A DNA stretch of 45,058 nt from an uncultured bacterium (GTDB lineage: Bacteria > Verrucomicrobiota > Kiritimatiellia > RFP12 > UBA3636): contig CADBEF010000002.1 in assembly GCA_902793555.1 (NCBI GenBank), positions 1-45,058 on the forward strand, in the 5' to 3' direction. Made by a program: the position numbers and the translations under genes. The notes beneath the pieces were generated by a model. The model had not been told where the DNA came from. It ran no database searches and saw nothing but the letters and a program-made list of their open reading frames with translations. Positions within the stretch are counted from its first letter, which is position 1, and every line of letters starts with the position of its first letter. Shown piece by piece: positions 2,270-21,716 of this stretch.

Positions 2270-3138
2270 CCCTGCTCCGCGAGCTGGAGCAGGTAGCGGC
2301 CGTAGTCGTTCTTCGACATGGAGCGGCCGATTTCCACGAGGCGTTCGCGGGAGAGCCAGCCGTAGTTGAACGCGATTTCCTCGAGGCAGGCGATCTTGAG
2401 CCCCTGGCGGTTCTGGATCGTCGCGACGAAATTCGACGCCTCGAGCAGCGAGCCGTAGGTGCCGGTGTCGAGCCACGCGATGCCGCGGCCGAGGAGCGCG
2501 ACCTTGAGCCGCCCCTCGCGCATGTAGGCGAGGTTCAGGTCCGTGATCTCGAGCTCGCCGCGCGGGCTCGGCTTGATCGACTTCGCCTTTTCGACGACGT
2601 CGGCCCCGTAGAAGTACAACCCCGGCACGGCCCAGTTGGACTTGGGCTCCGCCGGCTTCTCCTCGAGCCCCACGACGTTGCGGTCCGCGTCGAACTCCAC
2701 GACGCCGTAGCGTTCCGGATCGCTCACCTGGTAGCCGAAGACGTGCGCTCCGTCTTCGGCCGCGGCGGCCGCGGCGCGGACGGTCCGCTGCAGCCCTTCG
2801 CCGAAGAAGATGTTGTCGCCGAGCACGAGCGCGCATGGCTCGCCCGCGATGAACGTTTCGCCGATCAGGAACGCCTGCGCGAGTCCTTCGGGGCGGGGCT
2901 GCTCCGCGTAGGAGAGGCGCAGGCCGAAGTCCGAGCCGTCGCCGAGGAGCCGCCGGAACGACGGCAGGTCGTCCGGCGTGCTGATGACCAGGATGTCGCG
3001 GATGCCCGCGAACATCAGCACCGAGATCGGGTAGTAGACCATCGGCTTGTCGTAGACGGGGAGCAGCTGCTTGCTCGCCGCGCGCGTGATGGGGTAGAGA
3101 CGGGTGCCGGAGCCGCCGGCGAGAACGATGCCTTTCAT
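2266..3138 (-). CDS. rfbA: Glucose-1-phosphate thymidylyltransferase (RmlA)
   Basis: [46 protein letters not shown]. Start reassigned to ATG 3138. Confidence 0.97.
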
Positions 3139-3167
3139 GGTCGGATGTTCCAGATGGTCGGATGGGG

Positions 3168-3419
3168 CTAGAAGTTGCGTTCGTACTCGCCTTTTCCCAG
3201 ACGCGTGAGTTTGGAGAAGCCGGCGGCCTTGGCGCGGTCGTCCAGGCCCGACTGGCTGAAGCCGATCGCGGGCGGCGACGGCACGCGGACAACGGGCGCG
3301 CCGCACCACGGGCAGGTCTCCAGCGCCGGATCGGAGAGGGACTGCCGAAGATCGAAGCCGTCCTTGCACTTTTCGCAGGACGTGGCGGGATCCGGGGCCT
3401 GGTACGCGTAGATCGGCAT
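3168..3419 (-). CDS. FmdB-family zinc-ribbon protein
   Basis: MPIYAY...CEKC...F...Q.....CPWCG pattern; 83 aa; packed between the ABC ATPase gene and rfbA. Confidence 0.8.
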
Positions 3420-3423
3420 GGCG

Positions 3424-4443
3424 CTACTCCGAAAGGGGGACGACGTCGGACGGGGCGACCCAGGCCTCGGCTGGGCGCGATTCGTCGCGCGCGAGGACTT
3501 CGGGATTGAGCTCGAAGACCTTGAGCTCCGGGACGCCGGGGACGCCCGCGTCGAGCAGGTGCTCCGCGGTTTCGCCGAGGTAGACGGTTCCGTGGACGGT
3601 CCCGCGGAAGCGCAGCGCCGGGACGCCGGCGGGCGGCGCGCCGAGGCGGACCGTCTCGGGGCGGACCGACAGCGCGGCCGCGCCCGGGAAGGACGCCTGC
3701 GCGCCGAAGAAGTCCGGCGGGAGGAAGTTCGTCTCCCCGATGAACGACGCCACGAAGCGGTTCTTCGGCCTGCGGTAGACCTCGAGCGGCGCGCCGACCT
3801 GTTCGAGACGGCCGGCCTGCATGACGGCGAGGCGGTCGGCGATCGAGAGCGCCTCCTTCTGGTCGTGCGTCACGTAGACGGCCGTGAGACCGGCTTCCTT
3901 GCAGATGCGGCGGATCTCGAGGCGCATCTCGAGCCGGAGCTTCGCGTCGAGGTTGGAAAGCGGTTCGTCGAGGAGCAGGCAGCGGGGCTGCACGACGAGC
4001 GCGCGGGCGAGCGCGACGCGCTGCTGCTGGCCGCCGGAGAGCTGGTTCGGCTTGCGCGAGGCCTTGTCTTCCATCTTCACGGCGGCGAGCGCGGCGCGGA
4101 CGCGTTCCGCGGCCTCGGCCTTCGGGACCTTGCGCATCTGCAGGCCGAAGGCGACGTTCTCGGCGATGGTCATGTGCGGCCAGAGCGCGTAGCTCTGGAA
4201 TACCATGCCCGTGTCGCGCTTGTGCGGCGGCAGGCGCGTGACGTCCTCGCCGCCGATGAGGACCGACCCCCCGTCCGGTTCGTAGAAGCCGGCGACGTGG
4301 CGCAGGAGCGTGGTCTTGCCGCAACCCGAAGGGCCGAGAAGGAAGAACAGCTCGCCGGGTTCGATCTGCAGGTCGACATGGTCGAGCGCGGTCGTCGCGC
4401 CGAAGCGCTTGACGAGCCCGCGGATCTGGATGGAAACGGCCAT
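3424..4443 (-). CDS. ABC transporter ATP-binding protein (PotA/FbpC/MalK-like)
   Basis: Walker A GPSGCGKTT, signature LSGGQQQR, Walker B LLLDEP, H-loop YVTHDQ. AAAGGA SD lies upstream of ATG 4443. Confidence 0.93.
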   Translation of the reverse strand: MAVSIQIRGLVKRFGATTALDHVDLQIEPGELFFLLGPSGCGKTTLLRHVAGFYEPDGGSVLIGGEDVTRLPPHKRDTGMVFQSYALWPHMTIAENVAFGLQMRKVPKAEAAERVRAALAAVKMEDKASRKPNQLSGGQQQRVALARALVVQPRCLLLDEPLSNLDAKLRLEMRLEIRRICKEAGLTAVYVTHDQKEALSIADRLAVMQAGRLEQVGAPLEVYRRPKNRFVASFIGETNFLPPDFFGAQASFPGAAALSVRPETVRLGAPPAGVPALRFRGTVHGTVYLGETAEHLLDAGVPGVPELKVFELNPEVLARDESRPAEAWVAPSDVVPLSE

Positions 4444-6752: not shown

Positions 6753-8789
6753 TCAGCCGCGGGAGCGGGCGGCGGCCGCGCGGCGGCGGCCGCGGGGCGG
6801 CTTCGCCGGGGCGGGGGCGGCGCCGCCGGCGCGGAGCTTCGCGATCTGGTCGCGCAACCAGGCGGCGCGCTCGAACTCGAGCGCGTTCGAGGCCTCGAGC
6901 ATCTCCGCCTTGAGCCGCTCGATCGCGGCGGCGGCGTCCGTCGGGAACGCGGCCGCCTCGATCGCGGCGTCCGGGTCGCCGGCGACGGAGCGCACGGCGC
7001 TGTCTTCCGAGAGCGTGCGCTTCACGGAGCGCGGGACGATGCCGTGCTCCGCGTTGAACGCCTGCTGGATCCCGCGGCGGCGCTCGGTCACGCGGATCAT
7101 CTCCTTCATGGAGTCCGTGAGCTGGTCGGCGTAGAGGATCACGCGGCCGCGCTCGTGCCGCGCGGTGCGGCCGGCGGTCTGTACGAGCGACGTCGTGGAG
7201 CGCAGGAAGCCCTCCTTGTCGGCGTCCAGCACGGCGACGAGCGCGACCTCCGGGAGGTCCAGGCCCTCGCGCAGCAGGTTGATGCCGACGAGGGCGTCGA
7301 ACTCGCCCTTGCGCAGGCGCGTGAGGATCGCGATGCGCTCGAGCGCGTCGACGTCCGAGTGGAGGTATTCCACGCGGAGGCCGGATTCGCGCAGGTAGGT
7401 GGAGAGGTCCTCGGCGGTGCGCTTGGTGAGCGTGGTGACGAGCACCCGGTCCTTGCGCTCCGCGGCGGCGCGGATCTCCTCCATGACGTCGTCGATCTGC
7501 CCCGCGAGCGGGCGGACCTCGACGGGCGGGTCCAGGAGGCCCGTCGGTCGCACGACCTGCTCGACGATCGCCGCGGCGTGCTCGCGCTCGTAGGGGCCGG
7601 GCGTGGCGGAGGCGAAGAGCACCTGCCCGATCTTGCCCTCGAACTCCTCGAACGAGAGCGGGCGGTTGTCGCGCGCGGAGGGGAGCCGGAAGCCGTTGTC
7701 GACGAGGATCGTCTTGCGCGCGCGGTCGCCGTGGTACATCGCCTGCAGCTGCGGGATCGTGGCGTGCGACTCGTCGATGATCGTGAGGAACGGCTGGGGG
7801 AAGTAGTCCACGAGGCATTCGCCCGGCGTGCCGAGCGGGCGGCCGGAGAGCGGGCCGGAGTAGTTCTCGATGCCGGAACAGTAGCCGACTTCGCGGATCA
7901 TCGCCAGGTCGTATTCCGTGCGCTGTTGCAGGCGTTGCGCCTCGAGCGGCTTGCCGTTCGCCTCGAACCACGCGACCCGCTCCTTGAGCTCGGCGCGGAT
8001 GCGGTCCATCCCGGCGTCGACCTTCTCCTGCGGGAGCACGTAGTTGCGCGCGGGGGCGACGATCGTCCGGTCGAGCCGGCGCAACGTGCGGCCGGAGGCC
8101 GGGTCGAACTCGGAGAGCGAGTCCACCTCGTCGCCGAAGAGCCCGATGCGGTAGGCGACCTTCGCGTTCCAGGCGGGGAAGACGTCGACCGTGTCGCCGC
8201 GGACGCGGAACGTGCCGGGCGCGGGCTCGTAGTCGTTGCGTTCGTAGCGGATCTCGACGAGCCGCGCGAGCATCGCGTCGCGGTCGATCTCCTGGCCGAC
8301 GGCGAGGTGGAGCGTCATGCCCGCGTAGTCGTCCGACGAGCCGATGCCGTAGATGCACGAGACGGACGCGACGACGACGACATCCTTGCGCTGCACGAGC
8401 GCGTTCGCGGCGGAGAGCCGGAAGCGCTCGATCTCGTCGTTGATCGCGGAGTCCTTCGCGATGTAGGTGTCGGTCTGCGGGATGTAGGCCTCGGGCTGGT
8501 AGTAGTCGTAGTAGCTGACGAAGTACTCGACCGCGTTGTCGGGGAAGAACGCCTTGAGCTCGCCGTAGAGCTGCGCGGCGAGCGTCTTGTTGTGCGAAAT
8601 GACGAGCGTCGGCATCCCGAGGTCGCGGATGACGTTCGCCATCGTGAACGTCTTGCCCGAGCCCGTGACGCCCTCCAGCACCTGCGCCTTCGCGCCGGCG
8701 CGGAAACCGTCGACGAGCCGTGCGATCGCGGCCGGCTGGTCGCCGGCGGGCGCGTAGGGGGAAACGAGGCGGAAGGGGGATCCGGTCAT
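6753..8789 (-). CDS. uvrB: Excinuclease ABC subunit B
   Basis: PAGDQP, GVTGSGKTFT, HNKTLAAQL, YYDYYQPEAY, DESH, GINLLREGLD and a C-terminal UVR domain. ATG 8789 overlaps the upstream stop (ATGA). Confidence 0.97.
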   Translation of the reverse strand: MTGSPFRLVSPYAPAGDQPAAIARLVDGFRAGAKAQVLEGVTGSGKTFTMANVIRDLGMPTLVISHNKTLAAQLYGELKAFFPDNAVEYFVSYYDYYQPEAYIPQTDTYIAKDSAINDEIERFRLSAANALVQRKDVVVVASVSCIYGIGSSDDYAGMTLHLAVGQEIDRDAMLARLVEIRYERNDYEPAPGTFRVRGDTVDVFPAWNAKVAYRIGLFGDEVDSLSEFDPASGRTLRRLDRTIVAPARNYVLPQEKVDAGMDRIRAELKERVAWFEANGKPLEAQRLQQRTEYDLAMIREVGYCSGIENYSGPLSGRPLGTPGECLVDYFPQPFLTIIDESHATIPQLQAMYHGDRARKTILVDNGFRLPSARDNRPLSFEEFEGKIGQVLFASATPGPYEREHAAAIVEQVVRPTGLLDPPVEVRPLAGQIDDVMEEIRAAAERKDRVLVTTLTKRTAEDLSTYLRESGLRVEYLHSDVDALERIAILTRLRKGEFDALVGINLLREGLDLPEVALVAVLDADKEGFLRSTTSLVQTAGRTARHERGRVILYADQLTDSMKEMIRVTERRRGIQQAFNAEHGIVPRSVKRTLSEDSAVRSVAGDPDAAIEAAAFPTDAAAAIERLKAEMLEASNALEFERAAWLRDQIAKLRAGGAAPAPAKPPRGRRRAAAARSRG

Positions 8790-10144
8790 TCCGTTTCGCC
8801 GTCCTCCGCGGCGGCGGCGAGAAGGGCGCGGGCCTCGCGGAGGAGCGGGATTGCGACGCCGAGGGACGGGTTCGGTTTGGCCGCCTCGTCGAAGAACGCC
8901 GCAAAGCGGTCGCACGCGGCGCGGAAGGCGTCGCCGCGGCCGAAGGCGCGGCGCAGGACGTCTGCCTTGAGCGCGCGCGCGGCGGCGGGGGCCCATTCGC
9001 GGGCGTCGGGCTCGAGGAGGCTCTCGAGAGGCATCGGAGGATCCGAAACCTCGCCGGGGACTCCGTCGCGACCGGGAAAGACCTGCATCGCGGCGGACGT
9101 GCGTTCGACGAGCGAACCGGTGGTGTCGCCGGGGGAAAGGATGCGGGAGGCGCGGCGGTCCATCCAGGCGGAGAAATCGGCGTCGGCCGCGAACGCGTCG
9201 GCCTTTCGGAGGCTCGTGGCGAGGAAGAGTTCCGGAGTCCACGGGCGGCCGTCCGCGAGCGCGCGGCAGAGCTCGCCGAAGCGCCGGGGCGCGTCGGGAA
9301 AGGAGAGCCAGAATTCGACAAGCTGCACGGCGAGGGCGGGATCGGCGGAGGTCGCGGGCGCGTCCGCGGCGAGAATGGCGGGCAGCGGCGGGACCCGGCC
9401 GGCGAACAGGGCGTCGCGCACGCGGTCGAAGTCCTCCTGGCGCGTGGCGGGGTCGAGCGAGCGGGCGAGGCCGGCTGCGAACCACGCGGGGAAGGGCGTC
9501 GGTCCGGGGGCGGCCGGGCGGCCGGCGTCGACGGCGGCCCAGGCGGGCGTGAGGACCTTCAGGTCGATCCAGCCTCGGACGATCCGCTCGGCCAGGACGT
9601 GGGGGTCGAGGCCGTTCGCCGGGTTCGTGACCGTCACGACGAGCGGAATCTGCCAGCTGCGGTCCTGCCGGTGCGGGTCGAGATCCGCCACGACCCGCGC
9701 GGGGGCGTTCGTGCCCGCCTCGTCGGCGACGCAGCGGATCATGAGGCGGCAGTCGTCCGTCCGGAAAGAGGCGTGGCGCGCCTCGTCCGGCGTCGCGCCG
9801 CGGACGCCGAGCTTCGCTTCGAGCGCGTCGCGCAGGTCGGTCGCGAAATCGAGCAGCACGGCGCGGTCCGCGGGTCCGAGGTCCGGCGCGAAGATCCGGA
9901 CGCCTCCGTCGGCCGAGCGCTGGATGACGTTCGTCCCGATGCCCATGGCGAGACGGGCGACCCGCTCGAGCTCTTCCGGGTCGACGGCCGCGGATGCGCC
10001 GACTTCGCCGGACGGCGGGGGCGGGACGCGGACGCCGTCCACTTCGATGTACGGTTCCCGCGCGGGCGCCGCTTCTTCCTGCGCGCCGGCGGCGAGCGCG
10101 GCGCACGCGAGCAGTGCGGCGAGCGGGGCGGCGCGGCGCGTCAT
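8786..10144 (-). CDS. Hypothetical exported protein (452 aa)
   Basis: Signal peptide MTRRAAPLAALLACAALAAGA. ATGA-coupled to the TetR gene and to uvrB. Confidence 0.75.
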   Translation of the reverse strand: MTRRAAPLAALLACAALAAGAQEEAAPAREPYIEVDGVRVPPPPSGEVGASAAVDPEELERVARLAMGIGTNVIQRSADGGVRIFAPDLGPADRAVLLDFATDLRDALEAKLGVRGATPDEARHASFRTDDCRLMIRCVADEAGTNAPARVVADLDPHRQDRSWQIPLVVTVTNPANGLDPHVLAERIVRGWIDLKVLTPAWAAVDAGRPAAPGPTPFPAWFAAGLARSLDPATRQEDFDRVRDALFAGRVPPLPAILAADAPATSADPALAVQLVEFWLSFPDAPRRFGELCRALADGRPWTPELFLATSLRKADAFAADADFSAWMDRRASRILSPGDTTGSLVERTSAAMQVFPGRDGVPGEVSDPPMPLESLLEPDAREWAPAAARALKADVLRRAFGRGDAFRAACDRFAAFFDEAAKPNPSLGVAIPLLREARALLAAAAEDGETE

Positions 10145-10848
10145 TTCGCCGGTCCTCCGGCGCCCTTGGCGGCGAGGGCCGGCGGCAACGGGCGGATGGC
10201 GCGGATGCCGCCGATGACGAAGGCGCAGATTTCGCGGGCGAACTGCTCCGCCTCGCGCGGGCTCGGGCGGTCCGTCCCGAAGAGCGCCTTGCGCGTGGGG
10301 TGGCTGATCGCGAGCGCGGTGAACTGCGCGTGGATGGCGAAGAGGCAGCAGCCGATCTGGTAGTCGGTGACCCCGGGGCCGACCATGCGGCGCAGACGCG
10401 CCTCCAGCTCCGCGCGGCGCGGGGCGACGTGGGTGGAGAGGAGCTCGGCGGAGATCGGAGACGGATCCGCGAGCTCGCACGCCATGAGGCGGCTCAGCGT
10501 GCCGGACGAGCCCGTGTCGAACACGGACAGCACGCAGGCGTGGACGTATTTGTAGAGCCACGTCCGGTCGGGATCGGAGGACAGGCGCCCGCTCCCGGAC
10601 TCTTCGCGGACGGCGCGTTCCAGCGCCCAGTCCCAGACGGCGCGGTAGAGCTCCTTCTTGCCGCCGAAGTGGTAGTTCACGGCCGCGATGTTCGCGTGGG
10701 CGAGGCGGCAGACGTCCTGCGTCCGCGTCTCGCGGTATCCGTGCGCGGCGAACAGCGCGCCGGCCGCGCGGAGCAACAGCTCGCGCGTGTCGCCGCGGGG
10801 CCTCTTGCGCTCCGGGGCGCGGCGGTTCGCCGGACGGACGGTTTTCAT
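10141..10848 (-). CDS. TetR-family regulator (CecR/YbiH-like)
   Basis: TRELLLRAAGALFAAHGY...VNYHFGGKKELY HTH. Start put at 10848 because TAGAAT lies 7 nt upstream; the ORF track gives 10857. Confidence 0.9.
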   Translation of the reverse strand: MKTVRPANRRAPERKRPRGDTRELLLRAAGALFAAHGYRETRTQDVCRLAHANIAAVNYHFGGKKELYRAVWDWALERAVREESGSGRLSSDPDRTWLYKYVHACVLSVFDTGSSGTLSRLMACELADPSPISAELLSTHVAPRRAELEARLRRMVGPGVTDYQIGCCLFAIHAQFTALAISHPTRKALFGTDRPSPREAEQFAREICAFVIGGIRAIRPLPPALAAKGAGGPAK

Positions 10849-10855
10849 GCGCTCC

Positions 10856-10864
10856 ATTCTAGCA
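10856..10864 (-). promoter_or_regulatory. Extended -10 (TGcTAGAAT) 7 nt before the TetR ATG, putative leaderless promoter
   Basis: Minus strand gtgcTAGAATggagcgcATG. Confidence 0.7.
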
Positions 10865-10895
10865 CAGCCCCCCGGAAAAGGGAACGCCGTTTTCG

Positions 10896-11003
10896 CTAGC
10901 CGGGGAACGCGCGGACCGCGTCGATTTCTTCCGCGCCGCAGAGCGGCATGCAGGGGCGGTCCACGCCGAGCGCGACGCCGCCGGCCGGGCCGTGGATCGC
11001 GGG
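10896..11003 (-). pseudogene. Displaced, decayed copy of the epmA 3' end (left direct repeat of the island)
   Basis: 101/108 nt identical to 17134-17241. Encodes PAIHGPAGGVALGVDRPCMPLCGAEEIDAVRAFPG* versus PAIPGPAGGAALGVDRLCMLLCGAEEIDAVRAFPG* in epmA. Confidence 0.92.
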
Positions 11004-11005
11004 GT

Positions 11006-11629
11006 TCATGGCTTGCGGGATTCCTGCCGGGCGGGATGGTCGGCCGTTTCGGCGAGCGTCGTCGCGAGGGCGCGGAGGCGTTTCGAGACGCGGTGGCGGA
11101 TCTGGTCGACGGCGTTGCGCTCGATGCCGTAGTCCGCGGCGACGGCCGCGGGCTTCTCGCCGCCGATCGCGACGCGCAGGAAGACCTGCTTGGTGCGTTC
11201 GTCCGTGGCGGGGTCCGCGAGAAACTGCGAAAGGGCGACCTCGCAGGCCGCGTGGCGCCATTCGCGGAGCTCGTCCTCGGTCATGTCCCCCGACGCCGGT
11301 TCGAGCTCTGCGGCGTCCGCGAGGGCGTTCGCCTCGCGCAGGCGCCGCCGGATCGCGCCTGCCGCGTGCAGGCGCAGGATGCCGGCGAGGTAGTTGCGGA
11401 AATGCCCCTTCTCGTCCGGGGCGTGGACGTAGCCGGGCAGGCGTCTTGCGAGCGTGAGGAACGTCTCCTGCAGGAGGTCCTCCGACTCGGAGGCGAGCGA
11501 GGGGAAGCGCGACGCGAGGAAGCCTTCGAGCGCCGGGCGGTAGCGCGCGACGAGCTCGCTCCAACGGGGCGATTGCGCGTCCGCGCCGAGGTCGCGCAGG
11601 AGGGTGGTCGAGGTGGTGGGAGGGAGCAT
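11006..11629 (-). CDS. ECF (sigma-70 group 4) RNA polymerase sigma factor, 207 aa
   Basis: TTSTTLLRDL N-terminus, W.ELV.RY, SEDLLQETF (region 2), GHFRNYL, and region 4 HTH VAADYGIERNAVDQIRHRV. It is the 3' end of the 11006..13717 track ORF. Confidence 0.88.
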   Translation of the reverse strand: MLPPTTSTTLLRDLGADAQSPRWSELVARYRPALEGFLASRFPSLASESEDLLQETFLTLARRLPGYVHAPDEKGHFRNYLAGILRLHAAGAIRRRLREANALADAAELEPASGDMTEDELREWRHAACEVALSQFLADPATDERTKQVFLRVAIGGEKPAAVAADYGIERNAVDQIRHRVSKRLRALATTLAETADHPARQESRKP

Positions 11630-11632
11630 GTC

Positions 11633-11667
11633 AGTGACGAGTGACGAGTGGCGAGTGGCGAGTGACG
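11633..11667. repeat. 7-bp tandem array AGTGRCG x5 between the kinase stop and the sigma start
   Basis: AGTGACG AGTGACG AGTGGCG AGTGGCG AGTGACG. Confidence 0.92.
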
Positions 11668-11685
11668 AATCGGACGGGCCGGACG

Positions 11686-13572
11686 TCATTCCGGGACGAG
11701 GCGAAATCGGAGCCCGACGTTGTGGCCGGGCGGGGCCCAGAGGTCGGAGCGGAAGCGGTAAACGATGTCTTGCGGCCCCGGATAGGGCTTGTTCGAAACG
11801 CTGCAGACGTCTCCTCCCGGGCGTCCCCCTTCCTGGTCGGAATCGATGAGGAGGCCGTGGGAGAGTTGTTCGAAGGCGCCTCCGCGGCCGCCGTGGAGCG
11901 CCTTCCCGGCGAAGTAGGGCAGGTATTCGACAGTGAACGGCGGCAGGTTGTCGGCCCGGATGCGGCACCAGGACTGGCCGATGCCGCCCGGAACGTGGAA
12001 GATCAACGACCCGTCGTTCGCCTCGGCGAGCCGCACGGGAATCGCCGAGCCCGTGGTCCAGACGACATTCGTCCAGCCCGTCGCCTCCCCGATCCAAGGC
12101 GCGGGGATCTCGCGCTCCTCCGCATCGCGCGCGGCCGCCTCCGCGAGGCATTCGCGTTCCAGGGCCATCTGCCCGCCGAGCGACGTCTCGGCGGTCGAGA
12201 AGCGCAGTGCGCGGTCGCCGGGCGTCGGGTGTTCCGGGTCCGGCTCGTCGTAGGTCTCGGCGAAGTCCTCCGGAAAGACGGCGAGCACCTTCGGCAGCGA
12301 GACGAACGCCCCCGGTCCGAGCCGGAAGCGCGGGCTGCGCGCCGGGTCGGAATCCTCCGTCGTGTCGATCACCGCGGCGTTCCTTACCGTGACGAGCGTC
12401 TCCGGCGTGCCCGTGATCGTTGCGTCGAGGCGCCCCGGTCCGACGATCTCGACCGTCTGCGGCGCGGCAAGGTCCAGCGGGCGCCCGAGCGCGACGTGCC
12501 GGCCATCGAGCCGCACGCGCACGAGCGGCCGCCCATCGTAGACCGAGTACTCCGACACCTCCCGCCACGCCGGCTCCGCTTCCGCCTCCAGCCGCGCCAC
12601 GAGCTCCCGCGCGGCGGAGAGTTCCCGGGGTTCCGGCGATGCTGGCGGCTCCGGAAGCGGCGGATCCTTCGGTCTCGAAGTCCCGAAGCTCGCGACCGCT
12701 ACGGCGGCGATCGCCGCAAGAGCGGCGATCGCGGCGGCAGCCGCCGCCGGCGCGTGGCGGCGGCGGACCATCCGTGCGAACGCCTCCGCTGTTTGCGGCC
12801 GTTCGGCGGGGATCGCGCTCGTCGCGCGGCGCAACGGCCCCCGCCAGGCGCGCGGCGTGCGGCCGCGGAAGCACGCCGCGGCGATGAGCCCGAGCGCGTA
12901 GACGTCGCTCGCGGGCGTCACCTCGCCGCCCGCGAACTGCTCCGGCGCCGCGTAGCCCGGCGTGCCGACGCCGACGGCCCGCCCGTCGACGATCGACAGG
13001 GTCGGCGCGGCGGACGGTCCGGCGGCTTCGGAGCCTTCGGGCGCCGTCCATCGCTTCACCAGCCCGAGGTCGATCAGTACCGGCGAGCCGTCGGCGCGGA
13101 AGAGGACGTTGGAGGGCTTGACGTCGCGGTGCACGACGCCGCGGGCGTGGAGGTGGGCGAGGCCGCCGCAGAGCGCGAGGACGAAGCGCGCGACGTCGCG
13201 GTCGCCGCGCGGCAGCTCCCGCCTCTCGAGCTCCTCCACCGCCATCCACGGGCGGCCGTCCGCCGTCTCGCCCGCGTCGAGGAGGCGCGGCAGCGCCGGA
13301 TGGTCCGCCCCGCGCAGGATTTCGACCTCCCGCCGGAACCGCTCCGCGGCCGTCGGATCGGTGCGGTGGAGGATGCGGAGCGCGGCGGGCGACGGCCCGT
13401 CCGCGTGGTAGACTTCGCAGCTTCCGCCGCGCCCCAGCGGCCCTCCGACGCGCCACGCGCCGATCCGCGCGCCGGGCGCGAGAAGCCACGCGCGGCGTTC
13501 GTCCCCGTCGGGCGGAGAGCCGCTTCGGGCGGCGAGCCAGTCGTCGAAGAATCCGGGAGGGGGTGGAGACAT
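11686..13572 (-). CDS. Membrane-anchored Hanks-type Ser/Thr protein kinase with an extracytoplasmic C-terminal domain
   Basis: LGRGGSCEVY, HRDVKPSN, DLG, GTPGYAAPEQ, SDVYALG, then TM segment AAAAAIAALAAIAAVAVASF. Confidence 0.92.
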   Translation of the reverse strand: MSPPPPGFFDDWLAARSGSPPDGDERRAWLLAPGARIGAWRVGGPLGRGGSCEVYHADGPSPAALRILHRTDPTAAERFRREVEILRGADHPALPRLLDAGETADGRPWMAVEELERRELPRGDRDVARFVLALCGGLAHLHARGVVHRDVKPSNVLFRADGSPVLIDLGLVKRWTAPEGSEAAGPSAAPTLSIVDGRAVGVGTPGYAAPEQFAGGEVTPASDVYALGLIAAACFRGRTPRAWRGPLRRATSAIPAERPQTAEAFARMVRRRHAPAAAAAAIAALAAIAAVAVASFGTSRPKDPPLPEPPASPEPRELSAARELVARLEAEAEPAWREVSEYSVYDGRPLVRVRLDGRHVALGRPLDLAAPQTVEIVGPGRLDATITGTPETLVTVRNAAVIDTTEDSDPARSPRFRLGPGAFVSLPKVLAVFPEDFAETYDEPDPEHPTPGDRALRFSTAETSLGGQMALERECLAEAAARDAEEREIPAPWIGEATGWTNVVWTTGSAIPVRLAEANDGSLIFHVPGGIGQSWCRIRADNLPPFTVEYLPYFAGKALHGGRGGAFEQLSHGLLIDSDQEGGRPGGDVCSVSNKPYPGPQDIVYRFRSDLWAPPGHNVGLRFRLVPE

Positions 13573-13715
13573 GGAGGGTCGATCGGACGGAACGGGAATC
13601 TACCAGAAACCGGGGTTCGGCGCGAGACAAAAAAAGATTTTTCCGCTCCGCGTAAGATTTGCCGGAAACCGGCAGGTAAAGAAAAAAGGCCGCCATCCCG
13701 CGGCCCCGAAACAAC

Positions 13716-16700
13716 ATGAATCCAACCGATGAATCCGCCTCGGACGAGGCCCTGGTTCCGGCCGCAGCGCCCGAACCCGTTCCCTATGTCGAACCCGATC
13801 TCGACCCCGATGTCGACGTTGAACCGCCCGTCGATCCGGACGCGCCGTGTCCGTTCTTCCCGGTTTTTGCGAACGGGATCTTGAACTGGTGCGGGCGCCG
13901 CGTCGCGAACGCGCGCCGGCGGGCGGACAAACTCCCCCCCGTGCTTGCGGCGCCGGTTCTCACGGTCCTCTCGTTCTTCGGCTTCTTCCTTGGAGCCGCC
14001 CTTCTCCACGCGGCGGCGGTTGTCGGCATCGTCCTGGCCGCGGTCTCCTCCCGGTTCGCGGACTACCTTCCCGGGCAGATGGGAATCCTCCTGTTCTTCG
14101 GCTTCGGCCTGGGCGGTGTCGCGCTTCAGGTCTTCCTGCTGATCCGCATCGCGCTGAAAGTCCGGAACGCCGCAGGCGAAGGACGCCTCCGGGTCTTCAA
14201 CTCGTATTTCGAACTCGCCGGGAACGCCCTCCTCGTCCTGTTCGTCACGTTCTTCGGCGTCGTCATGTTCCTTTACTGTTTCTTCGAGCCGTCGGCGGAG
14301 CGGTTGTCCAGCCTCGTGATGCTGTTCGCGTTCTTCGAAGGCGTTTCGGCCGTCGGCCTGGCGCTCCTCGTCCACTCCTGCTACGTGCGCAACAGGCATC
14401 TGGGCTGGAAGACGGCGTTCGCGGTCGTCATCGCCAAATACGTCGCCTCGTGGTTCAGCTACTTCTGCGTCATGCGGATCTGGACGGCGATCCAGCGGAT
14501 CCTGCATCCGGTCGGCAGTCTGGAGGCGGCGGAGAACCGCTGGCACGACCGCCACACGATGAACGAGAACGCGAAGCGCGGCCGCACGGAGGAGACGAAC
14601 GTCGTCGCGGAAGTCCTCATCGCGACCGCGATCACGGTGATTCTCAAGAAGACGATCGCCCCGCTCGTCACCGGCCGGCCCGAGGGCGAGCCCAACGGGT
14701 TCGCCGCCGCCATGCGCGACTTCCGGGCGTGGCGCGCCGGGCGCGGGGCGTTCCTCGCCGGAACGGTCGTCTCGTTCCTCCTGCTTTGCGTCGGGCTTGC
14801 CTACGCCGCCTTGTCCATGGAACGGCACGAAGCCGCGACGATCAAGGCCGAACAGAAAGAACAACAGCAGGCCTGGGCCGACAAGAGCAAGACGCAAAAC
14901 GCCCTGAAATGCCTCGGCGACGCCCTGCGCTCGCGGGTGCCGAACGACGCGATTCCGCCGGTCGGCGCCTTCTCGTCCGCCGACGACTACTTCAAGGCGC
15001 TCGCCCGGAAGGGACTTTTCAAGACGTTCCTCGCGGACGTCGTGGAGGCGTTCTGCCACGGCAACGAGTTCAATTCGGGGCGGGCGGACTGGCCGAAGCG
15101 TTACACGAAGGCGTTCGAGGAAAGCGGCCTCTTCTCGGCGGAGAACGGCGGTCTTCCGCCCGTTCTCCGCGTCTGGACCGTGCTGGCCGGCGAACCGGAC
15201 AACGTGGACGTCCCGTTCTTCTGGATGTCGAGTCTCGGGAATCCGCTTTCCGACCTGCAGGATCTCCGCACCCGCGACGGCGACGTGAAGAAGGCGAAAA
15301 TCGACGCCAAGATTCCGTTCGCCGTGATTGCGGACAGAATGGGCCAAAACGTCAACGCGACGGAAAACTACGGCCTGTTGCTCAACGACCATTTCTCGGC
15401 CGTCGGCCAAGGCGGCGAGTTCCAGCTGCTCGAACCGGAAAACGGATTCGACCGGGAAACCGTCCGCCGGTATCTCGACGCGGTCGCGGCGGCCGAAAAG
15501 GCGATCCGCGAAGGCGACGAACGGGCCGCGGCCGAAAAGAAGAGCGCGCGCGACAAGGAGGCCATGCGGTTTTTCGACGACGGGGAACCGGAGGCCGGGA
15601 GCGCGCAGGCGACGGAGCCGGAGGCGAAACCGGAACCCGCGCCGAAGACGAACCGGGAACCGGAACCGGCTCCCGAACCGGCGGCAGAGACCGAATCCGC
15701 TCCGGAGCCGAAGACTCCGGCTCCCGAACCGGCGGCAGAGACCGAATCCGCTCCGAAGCCGAAGACTCCGGCCGCCAAGCCGGAGGATTCAAAGCCGACC
15801 GCGGCGCCGGCGCCCGCGAAAACGGACAAGCTGGCCGAGGTCGCGGACCGGCAGGCTGCGGCCTACCAGGACGGAACGAAATCGGCCGGGCAGATTCTCA
15901 AGTGGCTCGACTCCCCGAAAGTCCACGAATCGAAACGGGAACGGCTCCGTGCGCTTTTGGTGGAGCGCGGCGTTCCGCTGGCCGATGCCGAACGCAAAGA
16001 GAAGGAAGAGGCGAAGCGCAAGGCGGACGAGGAGCGCAAGGCGGCCGAAGAATCGAAGCGCAAGGCGGCCGAGGAACGCAAGGCGGCCGAAGAAGCGAAG
16101 CGCAAGGCGGACGAGGAACGCAAGGCGGCCGAAGAAGCGAAGCGCAAGGCGGCCGAGGAACGCAGGGCGGCCGAATTCAAGAAACGGCAGGAAAAGGCCG
16201 AGGCCGAGCGTCTCAAGAGGCAGGAAGAAGCCCGGAAACGCCAGGAAGAAGCCGACCGCCAGGCCAAGGAGGAAGCTGATCGAGAGCGGAAACGAAAGGA
16301 CAAAGAGGAGCGGGATCGGCAGAAGGCGCTGGACGAATTCACCAAGAGCATGCAAAAAATGTCGGAGGCCTCCCTCTCAATGGGCGCACGCGGGGAAGAG
16401 GAGGAAGACGTCGACGAGCTGGAAGAGGCGAACGCCGACAATCCGTTTTTCCGGAACGGGACCTTCCAAGGGGAGGCCGGCGTCGACGAACGGCGGGCCG
16501 CGCCGGAGGAAGGCCGCCGCGCCGAAGAACGGCGGCGCCGCGCCGAAGAACAGCGGGTTGCGCGGGAGGAACAGCGCCGCCGCGCCGAAGAACAGAGGGC
16601 TGCGCGGGAGGAACAGCGCCGCCGCGTTGAGGAGGCGAATGCCCGGCGCGCGGCGGAACGGAAGCGGGCGGAGGAGCGCAACGCGGAGCGCGAGGCCGCG

Positions 16701-17015
16701 CAAGTCGATCCGTACGCGATCTCGCCCATTCCGGGAGACGGAACGATCGAGGACGATCCCCCGCCGGTCCTCCACCCGAAAACGCGTTCCGCGGAGCCGG
16801 CGTCGCGAAACAGGCCCGGCGCGACGCCTCCCGCCATGCCCGACGCCATGGTCGAGCAGTTGGCGACCGGCATCCGGATGTCCGTCCAAGGCGGGCAGAT
16901 GACGCCGGCCCAGGCGGCCTTCATGCTGGACAACGCGACGCTCTCGGACGCGCAGAAGGCGACGGTCCGGAAGAAACTCGCCGCGGAAGGCATCTCCCTC
17001 CCCCGCGGAAAGTGA
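13716..17015 (+). CDS. Large hypothetical membrane protein: multi-TM N-terminus, globular middle domain, Pro/Glu linker and TolA-like charged coiled coil
   Basis: Several hydrophobic segments in the first ~370 aa; PAPEPAAETESAPEPKT repeats; AKRKADEERKAAEE and RRRAEEQR repeats. Confidence 0.8.
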   Translation: MNPTDESASDEALVPAAAPEPVPYVEPDLDPDVDVEPPVDPDAPCPFFPVFANGILNWCGRRVANARRRADKLPPVLAAPVLTVLSFFGFFLGAALLHAAAVVGIVLAAVSSRFADYLPGQMGILLFFGFGLGGVALQVFLLIRIALKVRNAAGEGRLRVFNSYFELAGNALLVLFVTFFGVVMFLYCFFEPSAERLSSLVMLFAFFEGVSAVGLALLVHSCYVRNRHLGWKTAFAVVIAKYVASWFSYFCVMRIWTAIQRILHPVGSLEAAENRWHDRHTMNENAKRGRTEETNVVAEVLIATAITVILKKTIAPLVTGRPEGEPNGFAAAMRDFRAWRAGRGAFLAGTVVSFLLLCVGLAYAALSMERHEAATIKAEQKEQQQAWADKSKTQNALKCLGDALRSRVPNDAIPPVGAFSSADDYFKALARKGLFKTFLADVVEAFCHGNEFNSGRADWPKRYTKAFEESGLFSAENGGLPPVLRVWTVLAGEPDNVDVPFFWMSSLGNPLSDLQDLRTRDGDVKKAKIDAKIPFAVIADRMGQNVNATENYGLLLNDHFSAVGQGGEFQLLEPENGFDRETVRRYLDAVAAAEKAIREGDERAAAEKKSARDKEAMRFFDDGEPEAGSAQATEPEAKPEPAPKTNREPEPAPEPAAETESAPEPKTPAPEPAAETESAPKPKTPAAKPEDSKPTAAPAPAKTDKLAEVADRQAAAYQDGTKSAGQILKWLDSPKVHESKRERLRALLVERGVPLADAERKEKEEAKRKADEERKAAEESKRKAAEERKAAEEAKRKADEERKAAEEAKRKAAEERRAAEFKKRQEKAEAERLKRQEEARKRQEEADRQAKEEADRERKRKDKEERDRQKALDEFTKSMQKMSEASLSMGARGEEEEDVDELEEANADNPFFRNGTFQGEAGVDERRAAPEEGRRAEERRRRAEEQRVAREEQRRRAEEQRAAREEQRRRVEEANARRAAERKRAEERNAEREAAQVDPYAISPIPGDGTIEDDPPPVLHPKTRSAEPASRNRPGATPPAMPDAMVEQLATGIRMSVQGGQMTPAQAAFMLDNATLSDAQKATVRKKLAAEGISLPRGK
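15666..15767 (+). repeat. 51-bp tandem duplication (PAPEPAAETESAP[E/K]PKT x2)
   Basis: ccggctcccgaaccggcggcagagaccgaatccgctccg(g/a)agccgaagact repeated twice. Confidence 0.9.
16011..16175 (+). repeat. 42-bp tandem repeats encoding [A/S]KRKA[D/A]EERKAAEE (about 4 copies)
   Basis: Repeated gaagcgcaaggcgg(a/c)cgagga(g/a)cgcaaggcggccgaagaa units. Confidence 0.88.
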
Positions 17016-17133
17016 CCGGCCGGCGCGCCGGCGCAATTCCAAGGCTTCCGCAGTCGGGGCGGGCGGCCGTCCTCGGCCGCCGCGGCGTGCGGGGACGCGC
17101 GCGCTCCCCGGGTGCAGAATTCTTGGAACCGCT

Positions 17134-18036
17134 CTAGCCGGGGAACGCGCGGACGGCGTCGATTTCTTCCGCACCGCAGAGCAGCATGCAGAGCCGGTCC
17201 ACGCCGAGCGCGGCGCCGCCGGCCGGGCCGGGGATCGCGGGCAGCGCGGCGAGGAACTCCTCGTCGAGCGGCATCGGCGTCTCTCCGTTCGCGATCTTCT
17301 CCGCGCGCGCCGACTCGAAGCGGCGGCGCTGCTCGGCCGCGTCGAGCAGCTCCCCGAACGCGTTCGCGAGCTCCATCCCGCCGGCGTACGCCTCCCAGCG
17401 CTCCGCGACGCGCGGATCGGCGGGCGAAAGCCGCGCGAGCGACGCGGCCGGGGCGGGGTAGTCGATGAGGACGCACGCCCGGTCGCGCGGCAGCGCGGGC
17501 TCGATCGCGAGCGCCATGTCTTCGTCGAAGCGCGCGGCGTCCCACGATTCCACGGGGTCCCAGCCGGCCCAGCGGCGGTAGGCCTCGCGAACGGGGATGC
17601 GCTCCCACTCGCGCGCCAGGTCGACCTCGACGCCGCCGAAGGCGACTCGCCCGGACCCCGCCACGGCGCGCGCGGCGTCGCGCACGAGCGCCTCGAGGTC
17701 GGCGAGGATTTCCAGGTAGGTGCCGGGCGCGCGGTACCACTCGAGCATCGTGAACTCCGGCGCGTGGCGCGCGCCGCGCTCGCCCTCGCGGAAGCACGGG
17801 CCGATCTGGTAGGGGCGCGGCACGCCGGCGGCGAGCAGGCGCTTCATCTGCAGCTCGGGCGACGCGCGCAGGAAGCGGTCTCCGCTCGCGGGCGGGCGGA
17901 TGAACGGTTCGTTGGCGGGCGCGGGGATGCGGACGGGCGTCTCGACCTCGACGAACCCCGCCGCGTCGAGCGTCGCGCGAAGCGACCGCAGCAGGCGCGC
18001 GCGGCGGAGCAGATTGGCGGGAAGGGCTGGGTGCAT
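17134..18036 (-). CDS. epmA: EF-P lysine aminoacylase EpmA (GenX/PoxA)
   Basis: GFVEVETP, LRASPELQMKRLL, FREGE.G.RH.PEFTMLEWY, ELANAFGEL, ALGVDRL; catalytic domain of class II LysRS only. Confidence 0.93.
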   Translation of the reverse strand: MHPALPANLLRRARLLRSLRATLDAAGFVEVETPVRIPAPANEPFIRPPASGDRFLRASPELQMKRLLAAGVPRPYQIGPCFREGERGARHAPEFTMLEWYRAPGTYLEILADLEALVRDAARAVAGSGRVAFGGVEVDLAREWERIPVREAYRRWAGWDPVESWDAARFDEDMALAIEPALPRDRACVLIDYPAPAASLARLSPADPRVAERWEAYAGGMELANAFGELLDAAEQRRRFESARAEKIANGETPMPLDEEFLAALPAIPGPAGGAALGVDRLCMLLCGAEEIDAVRAFPG

Positions 18037-18060
18037 GTCCGACTCGTTTTATGGGAAAGA

Positions 18061-18089
18061 ACGCTACCAGAGTGAACCGGGCAAGTCAA
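18061..18089 (-). promoter_or_regulatory. Sigma70-type promoter for epmA
   Basis: TTGACT-17 nt-TAGCGT with extended TGg. Confidence 0.65.
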
Positions 18090-18138
18090 TCCGTATTTAC
18101 GATTTCCGTATTGCCGAATTTGCGCAACCGCGAAAGAC

Positions 18139-18167
18139 TTGCAAAGAGGTTGGGATTTTGCCAGAAT
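18139..18167 (+). promoter_or_regulatory. Promoter directly before ATG 18175
   Basis: TTGCAA-17 nt-CAGAAT (TGc extended), 7 nt before the ATG. Confidence 0.6.
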
Positions 18168-18174
18168 GCCCGAC

Positions 18175-20652
18175 ATGGGACGGAAACTGTTCGCCTTGCT
18201 CGTCCTCGTCGCCGCCGCCGCGAGCGGCGAGGTCTCCGTCGTGCGCGGAACGGCCCGCGCACGCGACAACGACGCCGCGAAGAGCCTCAGCGGCATCACC
18301 TACGCCGGCGGCGGCCTCTTCTACGCCGTGGCCGACGACTCCGGAACCGAAGGCGGCCTCTACACGTGCTCGATCGAGCTCGGTCCCGAGGGGACGAACA
18401 TCGTCTCGTTCTCGATCTGTTCCACGAACGAGCGCGTCAAGCTCGGCACGGCGTCGGACCTGGAGGGCGTCGCGCGAGACCCCGCCACGGGCCATGTCTG
18501 GGCGACCGACGAGGGCGGGCGCAGTATCCGCGAGTACGACCCCGCCACGGGCGAGAAGCTCCGGAGCCTCGAGATCCCCGCGATCCTTTCGAACTACCGC
18601 TACAACTTCGGCTTCGAGGCGCTCACGATCTCCGGCGACGGCCTCTCGCTCTGGACCGCCAACGAGGAGGCGCTCGCGTGCGACGGCGCGATCTCCTCGC
18701 ACGACGCCGGCACGACCGTCCGCCTCGCGAAGTTCACGCGCCGCAGCGTCCGCGACGTCTTCAGGCTCGAGGCGATGGTCGCCTACACGACCGATCCGTG
18801 GAAGAACGCCTACGACTACAAGGGAACGGCGCGCTGCGGCGTCGCCGGGCTCTGCGCGCTGCCGGACGGCTCGCTGCTCGTGCTCGAGCGCGAATTGAAC
18901 TTCAGCAGCACGGGCGGGCTGGCGCTCCTTTTCGGCAACTACCTGGGCTGGAAACTCTACCGCGTCGCGCGCCCCGATGCCGCGACGGACGTGAAGGACT
19001 GGCCGTCTCTCGCGGACGGCGGCTGGACGGGCGCGGAGAAGACGCTCCTCGCGAGCGACGGCGGCCTGCTCTACGCCACAGGCAACTTCGAGGGCGTCTG
19101 CCTCGGCCCGCTCCTCGCGAACGGCGCTCTCTCGGTCCTGCTCCTCTCCGACTCCGGCGACGGCTATTCGCGTCCGATGGTCTACCCGCTCGTCCTCTCC
19201 GGCCTCGACGTGCATACGCTCGACTTCCCGGCGCCGGACGCTTCGCTCGGCGCCGACGCGGCCGCGTCGCTCGTCGGCTCGAACTACCGGTTCCTCGCGG
19301 GCGCCCGCGTCGAGTCCTCGCTCTCCGGTTCCGCCGCGGCCGCCGCTCGCTACGCGGCGAACGGCTCGTCCGTCCCGCTCCCGCAATGGTCGCTCTCGAG
19401 CGGCGACGCGACCGGCGAGGGCGCTGTCGCGTCGTTCGAGGTCGCGGGCGACGACACGCTCCGCTGGACCGGCCTCTCCGCCGCGCAGCCCGTCGAGACG
19501 AAAGTCCTCGGATGCGACACGTTCGAGGACTACGCCGTGGGGGCGTCGGTGACCGGCGATCGCGCGGACGAGAGCGACCTCCCGGGATGGATCGGCTCGA
19601 TCTTCGTCGCCACTGGAAACATCTGCGCCGCCGTCGAGGAGGGCTCCCCCGATCCCGGGTGCGCGGGATTCCCGATGGCGAAGGCGCCGCACGAACGCGT
19701 TCTTTCCGTCCGGAACGTACGGCGGGAGTATGGGACGGCCTCCGGTCGCAACCAGAAGCTCGAGCTAATGGTGCGGGTCCCGGCGTACTTCAACGTGCTG
19801 ATCGGGGGCGACGATCCGCTTTGCGAGGACGAGAACCGATCCAGCTGGATCGCGATGCTCCACGTGGAGGACGAAGGCGGAAAACCGCTTCTTTACCACG
19901 GCGACGGGAACGGCGCATTCGTCGATTCGGCCCTCGACGCCGGGCCGTTCGCGCCCGGGGAATGGATCCGGCTCGGGTTTCTGCTGGACGTCACGACCGA
20001 CCCGGGCGGTCGCGCGTTCGTTGAGGTGAGCGTCGACGGCACTCCCGTCTCCTCGACGAACGGCCTCGTTTCGCCTTCGAACCCCGTGCTGGCGGACGGA
20101 GGAACCTGGCATCTGGCGGGACCGGACACGACGTTCTGGGGCGGAATCACCTATCTCGCGCTGACGGGGCCCGACGACGGGTTCGCCGTCGACGACGTCC
20201 TGCTCGCGGAAGCGGACTTCCCGACCGAATCGACGCCCGGCTACGTCCGCGCCGACGGCGTGCCGTCGGACTGGATCCGCGCGCGCGGCCTCGACCCCGT
20301 CTTCGCGGACCTCTCCGCCCCGACCGCGATCCGCGATGGCGACCGCGTCTACACGCTGGGCGACGCCTTTACCGCCGGCGTCGACCCGGACGGGACCGAC
20401 CCGTTGCGCGAGGCGGCGGTCGAGCTTCTTCCCGACGGCCGCGTCCGCATCGTCCTCAATGGCATCCGACCCGACAACGCGGCCGCCTACGCCGTCTACG
20501 GCGCGGCCGATCTCGCCGCGCTTTCGACCGACGATCCGTCGCGCCTCGTCCCCGGCGCGTTCCAACCGGACTCCGCGACGGGCCGGACCGTCTGGACCAG
20601 CGACGAGCCCGTCGGCGACGCCGCCTTCTTCCGGGTCAAGGCCTCGCGCTAG
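18175..20652 (+). CDS. Secreted protein with an N-terminal phytase-like esterase beta-propeller and PVC-type C-terminal modules
   Basis: Signal peptide; [43 protein letters not shown]; C-terminal DGVPSDW..GLDP / GVDP and FFRVK. Confidence 0.78.
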
Positions 20653-21716
20653 CGCCCGGCGTAGTTGCGCTCGAGCCAGGTGCGGTAGGCGCCGGTGCGG
20701 ACGGAGTCGACCCACGCGGGGTTGCCGAGGTACCAGCGCACGGTCTGCTCGAAGCCGTTCTCGGCCGTGTAGGCCTGCGTCCAGCCGAAGTCGCGCTCGA
20801 GCTTGCCGCAGTCGATCGCGTAGCGCTGGTCGTGGCCGAGGCGGTCCGTGACGTGGCGGACGAGGCTCTCGCGCGGCGCGCCGGAGGGCAGGGGCGGGGC
20901 GAGGCGGTCGACGAGGGCGCAGAGCGTCTTCACGACGTCGAGGTTCGTGCGCTCGTTGCGGCCGCCGACGCAGTAGGTCGAGCCGGACTCGGCGCGCGTC
21001 ATCACGGTCCAGATCGCGGCGCAGTGGTCTTCGACGTGGAGCCAGTCGCGCACGTTGAGGCCCGCGCCGTAGACCGGCAGCTCCTTGCCCTCGAGCGCGT
21101 TCAGGACCATGAGCGGGATCAGCTTCTCCGGGAACTGGTAGGGGCCGTAGTTGTTCGAGCAGTTCGTGATCGTGACCGGCAGTCCGTACGTGTCGTGGAA
21201 CGCGCGGACGAGGTGGTCCGAGGACGCCTTCGACGCCGAGTACGGGCTGTGCGGCGCGTAGGGCGTCGTCTCCGAGAAGAAGCCCGTCGGACCGAGCGAT
21301 CCGAACACCTCGTCGGTGGAGACGTGGTGGAAGAGCGACAGCGCGGCGCCGCGTTCGCGCGCGGCCTGCAGGAGGTTGAACGTGCCGACGATGTTCGTCT
21401 GCACGAAGTCGTCCGGCGCGACGATCGAGCGGTCGACGTGGCTCTCCGCGGCGAAGTGCACGATCGCGTCGATCTCGTACCGATCGAGCGCCTCGCGCAC
21501 GGCCGCCGCGTCGCGGATGTCGGCGTGGAGGAAGACGTAGCGGCCGCCGAACGTCGCGGCGACGTCCGCGAGGCTCTCCGCGTTGCCCGCGTAGGTGAGC
21601 GCATCGTAGTTGACGATGCGCCCGGCGAAGTCCGTCTTCTCGAAGACGTGGCGGATGAAGTTGGAGCCGATGAAGCCGGCGCCGCCGGTGACGAGGAGGT
21701 TCCGGAACGTCCGCAT
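20649..21716 (-). CDS. rfbB: dTDP-glucose 4,6-dehydratase (RmlB)
   Basis: [53 protein letters not shown]. Confidence 0.97.

Follow-up and report, generated by a model that had tools for sequence, protein, structure and literature searches.

A tail-duplicating insertion behind epmA in two related bacterial species, with a decaying orphan tail and no mobility genes found

The 45,058-nucleotide (nt) stretch of DNA considered here, referred to as the window, is the entire contig C2 (CADBEF010000002.1 of GenBank assembly GCA_902793555.1, forward strand) of a metagenome bin from an uncultured ruminant-gut bacterium of the Verrucomicrobiota (GTDB lineage Kiritimatiellia; RFP12; UBA3636); the bin measures 3.38 Mb in 325 contigs and is 89% complete. 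Behind the 3' end of its epmA gene stands an island of ~6.1 kb with genes for a 1099-amino-acid (aa) membrane protein, a Ser/Thr kinase and an extracytoplasmic function (ECF) sigma factor, and on the far side of the island, next to a tetR gene, the last 108 nt of epmA recur as an orphan. The same tail-duplicating insertion is present in a second species of the genus, the orphan tail is decaying, and no mobility genes were found at the locus. What is new here is that divergence between the two species is far lower in the island and epmA than in 17 other genes of the window. We regard it as reasonably probable (roughly 0.6) that the locus arose by an old, integrase-free recombinational insertion behind epmA, was later subject to homologous exchange between lineages, and is not self-mobile.

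The two copies of the direct repeat, at positions 10896-11003 and 17134-17241, are 108 nt long, 94% identical and 6238 nt apart from start to start. The first-pass annotation of this DNA, made from its letters, had described a 108-bp direct repeat with 7 mismatches over the end of epmA, and both a repeat search and a base-by-base comparison confirm that description. Each copy consists of the last 35 codons plus the stop codon of an EpmA-family gene on the minus strand, and the edges are sharp, with similarity breaking off right after the stop codon and at codon -36. Only two full-length matches to a query of these 108 nt exist in the whole assembly (E 3.6e-51 and 1.6e-41), the four further matches listed being just 22-47 nt each, and the repeat is therefore not a chance match. 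The copy at 17134-17241 completes an intact gene, 17134-18036, whose predicted product can be named at the family level as EpmA (the elongation factor P lysine aminoacylase family, with a fold like that of class II aminoacyl-tRNA synthetases); its score of 278.5 bits against TIGR00462, the EpmA model, is slightly below the cut-off of 286.9, while the match to PF00152 is well above its own cut-off. EpmA orthologues occur in 59 of 61 genomes searched, that of the window counted, and the intact tail retains the GGAALGVDRL motif that is present in 28 of the 28 orthologue C-termini printed. No gene body precedes the copy at 10896-11003.

The genome of the window (G000) could be compared with other members of its genus, including G001, G002, G003, G006, G008, G009 and G010. 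The closest is G003, a separately assembled sister species (EpmA 96% identical), followed by G002 (EpmA 94% identical). Contig C523 of G003 is colinear with positions 6781-12838 of the window, and the colinear part of contig C255 comprises 12949-18036 followed by 20646-21153. Contigs from four public runs were also compared with the locus. Those of run X1, which may be the source sample, span 10300-11120 (tetR, orphan, ECF gene) and 16123-17900 (membrane-protein gene, tail, epmA) with 0 mismatches; run X2, from a different study, has a contig across the orphan-ECF junction (10887-12279); and a single contig of run X3 bears five of the variants of the G003 orphan plus the G003 variant at position 11020 in the junction. 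Because the structure recurs in the separate assembly of G003 and public contigs run across both junctions, it is not an artefact of assembly, a possibility that the first-pass annotation had itself raised against its proposal. That two strains of the bin were joined at a stretch they share might be suspected from the number of contigs in the bin, from the heterogeneity of the G003 bin at this locus and from the frequency with which public contigs end at the repeat. Such a joint is exceedingly improbable, however, in view of the 7 differences between the copies, the unique flanks of each, the contigs just described and the finding that the junction letters recur in G003 beside an orphan with other mutations.

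The two orphans provide a record of the age of the insertion. That of G003 has identical edges and identical letters in front of it. When changes are polarised against the intact copies of G000, G003 and G002, two derived changes prove to be common to both orphans (CGG>CGC, synonymous, and CTG>CCG, L>P), four more belong to the G000 orphan (P>H, A>V, L>P and one synonymous) and seven more nt have changed in the G003 orphan (L>P, C>G, E>A by two nt, and three synonymous). The orphans differ from each other at 11 of 108 nt and the intact copies at 2 of 108, and the changes in the orphans fall in the GGAALGVDRL...M(L/V)L stretch that is kept across the 28 printed orthologue C-termini. The displaced tail is thus a functionless, decaying fragment that is free of constraint on protein sequence, and the decay proposed by the first-pass annotation is borne out both by the substitutions relative to the intact copy and by the lineage-specific changes in the G003 orphan. 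Its list of codon differences (P>H, A>V, L>P twice and three synonymous) also stands, except that one synonymous difference, GGC/GGT, had been placed in the orphan and is shown by comparison with G003 to be a change in the intact G000 copy. Since the junction and the derived changes are common to the two species, the orphan status and the insertion itself predate the split of their lineages. The TGA stop of the ECF gene (11008-11006) overlaps an ATG (11009-11007) that opens the orphan frame. We considered whether this 37-codon frame might be a small gene in its own right, linked to the ECF gene through the ATGA overlap, and rejected the idea, as the lineage-specific changes are mostly non-synonymous and introduce prolines into a helix that is conserved.

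Divergence between G000 and G003 was measured at fourfold degenerate sites for the genes of the window, one gene with too few sites being omitted. The values for the island and epmA are 0.045 (ECF), 0.051 (kinase), 0.038 (membrane protein) and 0.059 (epmA), as against 0.146 for uvrB, 0.229 for the hypothetical gene and 0.216 for tetR in the flank; the 17 other window genes, these last three included, range from 0.091 to 0.284 with a median of 0.18. In the rest of the window the two genomes are 87-92% identical in nt, and over gmd 95%. The change point in divergence falls between 10993 and 11189, at the junction of orphan and island, and differences amount to 17 in 146 nt of orphan plus spacer versus 10 in 261 nt of two intergenic stretches of the island (Fisher p 0.003). 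At the other end, low divergence extends across the whole of epmA save for a variable cluster in its first codons, beyond which G003 is without 18037-20645. The gmd 3' end occurs in the G003 bin in two versions, on C255 (L082, 1-508) and on C414 (L182, ~2975-3782), which are 87.5% identical to each other and continue differently; over the 520 columns common to all three, C255 is 95% and C414 89% identical to G000, and BLAST gives 97% for C255 against window 20646-21153. These two ends represent either a strain mix or a second locus, and they bear on any divergence comparison that involves G003.

Relatives were searched for the empty epmA-tetR allele, or for other cargo at the same site, that the first-pass annotation had suggested might be found there, and neither turned up in the 10 of 11 other genus genomes that have sequence downstream of epmA (the G010 copy is cut by a contig end). 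Among those 10, G003 alone carries the island behind epmA, and tetR, the 452-aa hypothetical gene and uvrB are downstream of epmA in none. The first gene downstream of epmA differs from one genus genome to another, except that G008 and G006 have the same one, and synteny breaks off on the 3' side of epmA in the genus as a whole. Among tetR orthologues from 10 genus genomes, only that of G003 is adjoined by an epmA tail. In G002 it is an rluA-like gene that precedes tetR and the hypothetical gene, and uvrB and epmA are on other contigs; the rluA orthologue of G000 is followed, behind the same TGTGCTAGAAT motif, by a different gene, whose start presumably reads as that of pheT. The membrane protein of G001 is not adjacent to epmA. 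Because neighbours differ nearly everywhere, no ancestral order can be read from the relatives. A joint skipping 6238 nt or closing a circle was seen in no contig of the four runs, which does not establish that such forms are absent, since rare forms are dropped from contigs. Loose contig ends at 10988-10991 do not continue like the intact copy, and we take them to belong to class II synthetase-like genes of other organisms. A metagenome scan with EpmA yielded 80 loci, the best just 67% identical, and no close relative. Reconstruction of the island's original locus was attempted and abandoned, the flanks of the G009, G010, G001 and G002 copies mapping to other contigs or to contig ends of the fragmented G000 assembly.

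The tails themselves and the inner edge of the island are informative about the kind of event that joined them. All four copies (orphan and intact, in G000 and G003) end in VRAFPG*, which among the 28 printed orthologue C-termini is confined to this clade; EpmA of G002 has the ending ...VRMVED*, and the most frequent form, PP(V/I)G.LW (for example ...VRAFLPPVGALW*), is that of 13 of the 28. Since both copies bear the clade-specific ending, the restored tail did not come from a distant element and is either native to the lineage or taken from a very close relative. Judged from these endings, the clade has evidently seen more than one remodelling of the end of epmA. As a separate observation, the last 8-10 residues of EpmA seem dispensable, having been replaced at least twice, each time beside a changed downstream neighbour. 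At the inner edge, positions 11004-11050 have no counterpart in the two nearest ECF orthologues (G009 and G010), whose open reading frames (ORFs) end 12 nt past the homology. As that homology ends 47 nt before the window's stop, the ECF frame traverses unmatched letters up to the start of the orphan, which begins abruptly. This end of the insert is a non-homologous junction, and it looks like an illegitimate join and not like a conserved attachment arm.

The first-pass annotation had proposed an island without integrase that inserted into the 3' end of epmA and replaced the gene's tail. Such a unit could be a site-specific integrative element that targets this gene end, with its integrase lost or acting in trans. 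Several features invite this interpretation: direct repeats flank the block, similarity stops exactly at the stop codon, the gene has been preserved and its displaced tail is in decay, divergence between the species is much lower in the island than in its flanks, with a step at the left junction, and G+C is lower over the membrane-protein gene (0.63-0.69 vs 0.72-0.77 in the flanks). We nevertheless consider it quite unlikely. No recombinase, transposase, phage or plasmid function was detected by Pfam in 7 proteins of the region (3 of the island and 4 to its left) and 7 further ORFs of the window, nor any mobility function by NCBIfam on 6 proteins or by PADLOC on the 3 island proteins, so that the absence of a recombinase between the repeats, already noted on first inspection, holds; integrase, excisionase, relaxase and replication genes are likewise lacking in and beside the block, and the 3 matches to the tyrosine recombinase family PF00589 in the assembly all lie on other contigs. 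Against a targeted element there are, moreover, the same clade-specific C-terminus on both tails, the 47 nt of unmatched DNA fused to the ECF frame at the inner junction, cargo that is in part multi-copy and in part patchy in its distribution, a tract of low divergence that continues past the repeat over the whole epmA body, and the failure of the genomes, contigs and metagenome loci described above to show an empty site, different cargo or a joint that closes a circle. Nor did our search of the literature, which lay outside supplementary files, find a paper that links epmA or yjeA to an attachment site. Of the three origins that the first-pass annotation had allowed for a unit without recombinase, the evidence favours a relic and entry by recombination. 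A related and, in our judgement, also improbable idea is that the three-gene block is a cassette that spreads among related ruminant-gut species and docks at the 3' end of epmA by means of the gene's own tail, the joining being done by a recombinase in trans or by host recombination. If this were true, epmA would be a new attachment site, and the island an integrase-less one that carries a regulatory module.

A purely internal rearrangement would need no outside DNA: a segmental duplication that included the end of epmA, followed by deletion or translocation, might have placed resident genes between the copies. Both tails are the lineage's own, paralogous blocks and tandem paralogues abound in the genome (a self-comparison of G000 gave 417 intra-contig repeats of at least 60 nt), kinase/ECF modules are multi-copy in the genus, with orthologues or paralogues in most of its genomes, and gene order around epmA, tetR and uvrB varies among all genus members examined. 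This route is nonetheless unlikely, as it takes at least 2-3 steps where one anchored insertion would do, leaves the 3-4x lower divergence of the island and epmA relative to the flanks unexplained, and finds no second copy of the island genes in the assembly, where tblastn places the membrane protein on the window's contig only. Among 12 short direct pairs of high identity picked by eye from the 417 repeats, none is a gene tail flanking an insertion elsewhere in G000; they are non-coding repeats or domains of paralogues, and the pair on contig C161 described below is one of them.

In the account that we favour, an integrase-free insertion with later exchange, epmA would once have run directly into the block of tetR and the hypothetical gene, an ancestral order that is read from the position of the orphan only. 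A 6.1-kb segment with the genes for the membrane protein, the kinase and the ECF factor would then have entered by recombination anchored on epmA homology, either through homology at one end combined with an illegitimate join made at codon -35 in the resident epmA, or through a single crossover of a circular fragment bearing the last 108 bp of epmA. The outcome, which is what the locus shows, is a complete epmA with a tail of the lineage's type, three new genes and a displaced tail of 108 bp. At a later time, as the step in divergence suggests, the island and epmA would have been exchanged between the lineages by homologous recombination, which would explain their greater likeness in comparison with the flanks. 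The exchanged tract may end where it does because the orphan and the spacer are poorly conserved and sequence identity drops there.

A number of points weigh against this account. The empty epmA-tetR arrangement that it presupposes was found in no genome, and in G002 it is the rluA-like gene that tetR follows. The homology ends exactly at a stop codon, which is what tail-restoring elements give and is a coincidence for random recombination. The left end of the low-divergence tract lies within ~200 nt of the island junction, as is predicted by transfer as a unit and not by random later exchange. The orphans differ at 10%, between the levels of the island and the flanks, and neither simple timing fits well. 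The tract of low divergence that runs from the island through epmA would fit an insert anchored in that gene, but a later homologous exchange or a mixed bin could produce it too. Part of the divergence step could also stem from a mixture of strains or from a chimeric contig, as the G003 bin is not uniform here. The edge at the stop codon, the step at the junction and the 10% divergence of the orphans keep the targeted element as a minority reading.

It is well known that certain elements enter a gene at its 3' end and rebuild it, and phage 21 and the e14 element, for example, insert in icd. One report describes the integration of SGI1-type islands at the 3' end of trmE (PMC8409611). As far as the systems are described there, the locus resembles such elements in the repeat of a gene tail, the intact gene and the displaced tail downstream, and differs from them in that no integrase or mobility gene was found, the tails are of the same lineage type, the inner junction is irregular, and no empty site or circle was found. 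In homology-facilitated illegitimate recombination, according to two reports, one homologous anchor is combined with one illegitimate end (PMC5361080, PMC3240628). To the extent of those descriptions, the locus is similar in that no recombinase is needed, epmA homology lies on one side and a junction of unmatched letters on the other, and foreign genes are trapped at the anchor. Products of the classic form of this process usually delete recipient DNA at the illegitimate end, whereas the locus duplicates 108 bp rather than deleting, and we infer the mechanism here. At Rhs, contact-dependent inhibition (CDI) and type VI effector-immunity loci, C-terminal displacement leaves orphan 3' fragments (PMC5361080), and there, too, an incoming piece gives a new 3' end and the old one is displaced downstream as an orphan. 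Those loci are described as swapping variable toxin tips, with immunity genes under selection, while here the old and the new tails encode the same sequence, the gene is for a housekeeping-type enzyme and the orphan is decaying. The closest mechanistic parallels are homology-facilitated illegitimate recombination and the C-terminal displacement, with orphan 3' ends, of the Rhs and type VI loci.

The locus offers a clean and datable case in which genes were added beside a housekeeping-type gene without breaking it, and its displaced tail is a molecular fossil that is visible in two species. If the divergence step were to hold true in complete genomes, a regulatory cassette together with epmA would have passed from one rumen species to another with no means other than recombination. 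At present, the locus represents ordinary genome plasticity with a neat recombination scar, and it opens no new question. The features of the region are listed in Table 1.

Table 1. Features of the window around the epmA tail repeat, from left to right
Feature	Position	Strand	Basis or remark
uvrB	6753..8789	-	PF17757, PF12344, PF02151
Hypothetical protein, 452 aa	8786..10144	-	paired with tetR in G002 too (tblastn, G002:C246)
TetR/CecR-family regulator	10141..10857	-	PF00440 and PF09209
Orphan-tetR spacer, 38 nt	10858..10895	-	6 of 38 nt differ from G003
Orphan epmA tail, decaying pseudogene fragment	10896..11003	-	P>H, A>V, L>P, L>P vs intact copy
Inner junction, last 47 nt of ECF ORF	11004..11050	-	ECF 3'-end alignment
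ECF-type sigma-70 factor, 207 aa	11006..11629	-	PF04542; TIGR02937 47.1 bits vs cut-off 42.9
Heptamer tandem TCGTCAC/TCGCCAC, 5 units	11633..11668	-	directly upstream of ECF start codon
Ser/Thr protein kinase, 628 aa	11686..13572	-	PF00069 E 1e-24
1099-aa protein, P/E/A-rich then K/E/R-rich tandem repeats after N-terminal part	13716..17015	+	convergent with epmA
Spacer between convergent epmA and membrane-protein genes, 118 nt; long imperfect palindrome, terminator-like	17016..17133		inverted repeat 17037-17128
Intact repeat copy: last 35 codons and TAG of epmA (...AIPGPAGGAALGVDRLCMLLCGAEEIDAVRAFPG*)	17134..17241	-	sequence comparison
EpmA-family gene, intact, 300 aa	17134..18036	-	PF00152 E 2.9e-45; best NCBIfam match TIGR00462

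The N-terminal part of the 1099-aa protein is hydrophobic and probably forms a multi-pass membrane domain. The protein has no match in Pfam, NCBIfam or PADLOC; its N-terminal 561 aa are present in 3 of 31 family genomes and gave no match by tblastn against collections of plasmids and phages. The number of its in-frame tandem repeats of 51 and 42 nt (15666-15767, 15990-16199 and 16524-16607) is not the same in all strains: 51 nt are missing from contigs of runs X3 and X5 and 42 nt from one or more contigs of X3, and the gaps in G003 measure 51, 24 and 42 nt. The RNA fold of the spacer that separates this gene from epmA has a predicted energy of -75.4 kcal/mol (z -4.27), and 0 of 200 shuffles were equally stable.

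For the kinase, the matches in NCBIfam and PADLOC are to generic kinase domains only, with NCBIfam scores all far below their cut-offs. The nearest orthologues of the ECF factor, in G009 (90% identical in aa) and G010 (87%), are at other loci with other downstream genes. A foreign origin of the kinase/ECF pair was entertained on the grounds that the ECF factor is 90% identical to that of G009 and EpmA 76%, but was dropped; uvrB is 87% identical, so that the value for the ECF factor is compatible with ordinary conservation. G000 holds more kinase/ECF modules with the same gene order, at C39:21564-23096 and on C320, C23 and C143, at 69-75% nt identity to that of the island. The 36-nt heptamer stretch matches many contigs of other genus genomes, some with longer arrays (G009:C242:3305-3403), and the G000 assembly has only 8 heptamer arrays of at least 3 units; in all four runs, contig depth over the heptamer bin is ~5-40x that of neighbouring bins.

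To the left of the orphan, the spacer at 10858-10895 holds most of the TGTGCTAGAAT motif, which ends at 10855-10857 in the first ATG of the listed tetR ORF; the true start of tetR is likely to be the second ATG, at 10848. The motif is found upstream of tetR in G002 also, as it is upstream of the gene after rluA in G000. It resembles an extended -10 box and stands a few bases before the starts of unrelated genes of the genus (window 10855-10865; G000:C231, downstream of the rluA-like gene; G002:C246 ~3013-3023), and it may be a common promoter form of the group. The 452-aa hypothetical protein has no match in Pfam or NCBIfam, and uvrB is present in all 12 genus genomes.

On the other side of epmA, a phytase-like gene (PF13449) at 18037-20645, upstream of epmA, represents an indel: it is missing in G003, where epmA adjoins gmd, and G002 is without the stretch 19501-20608 of the phytase-like region. 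Elsewhere in G000, two neighbouring ORFs of contig C161 end in the same stretch of 118 nt, 95% identical between G000:C161:2499-2616 and 3642-3759 (...NPDYVLSGTPLVIPALP), and are probably tandem paralogues with a conserved C-terminal domain.

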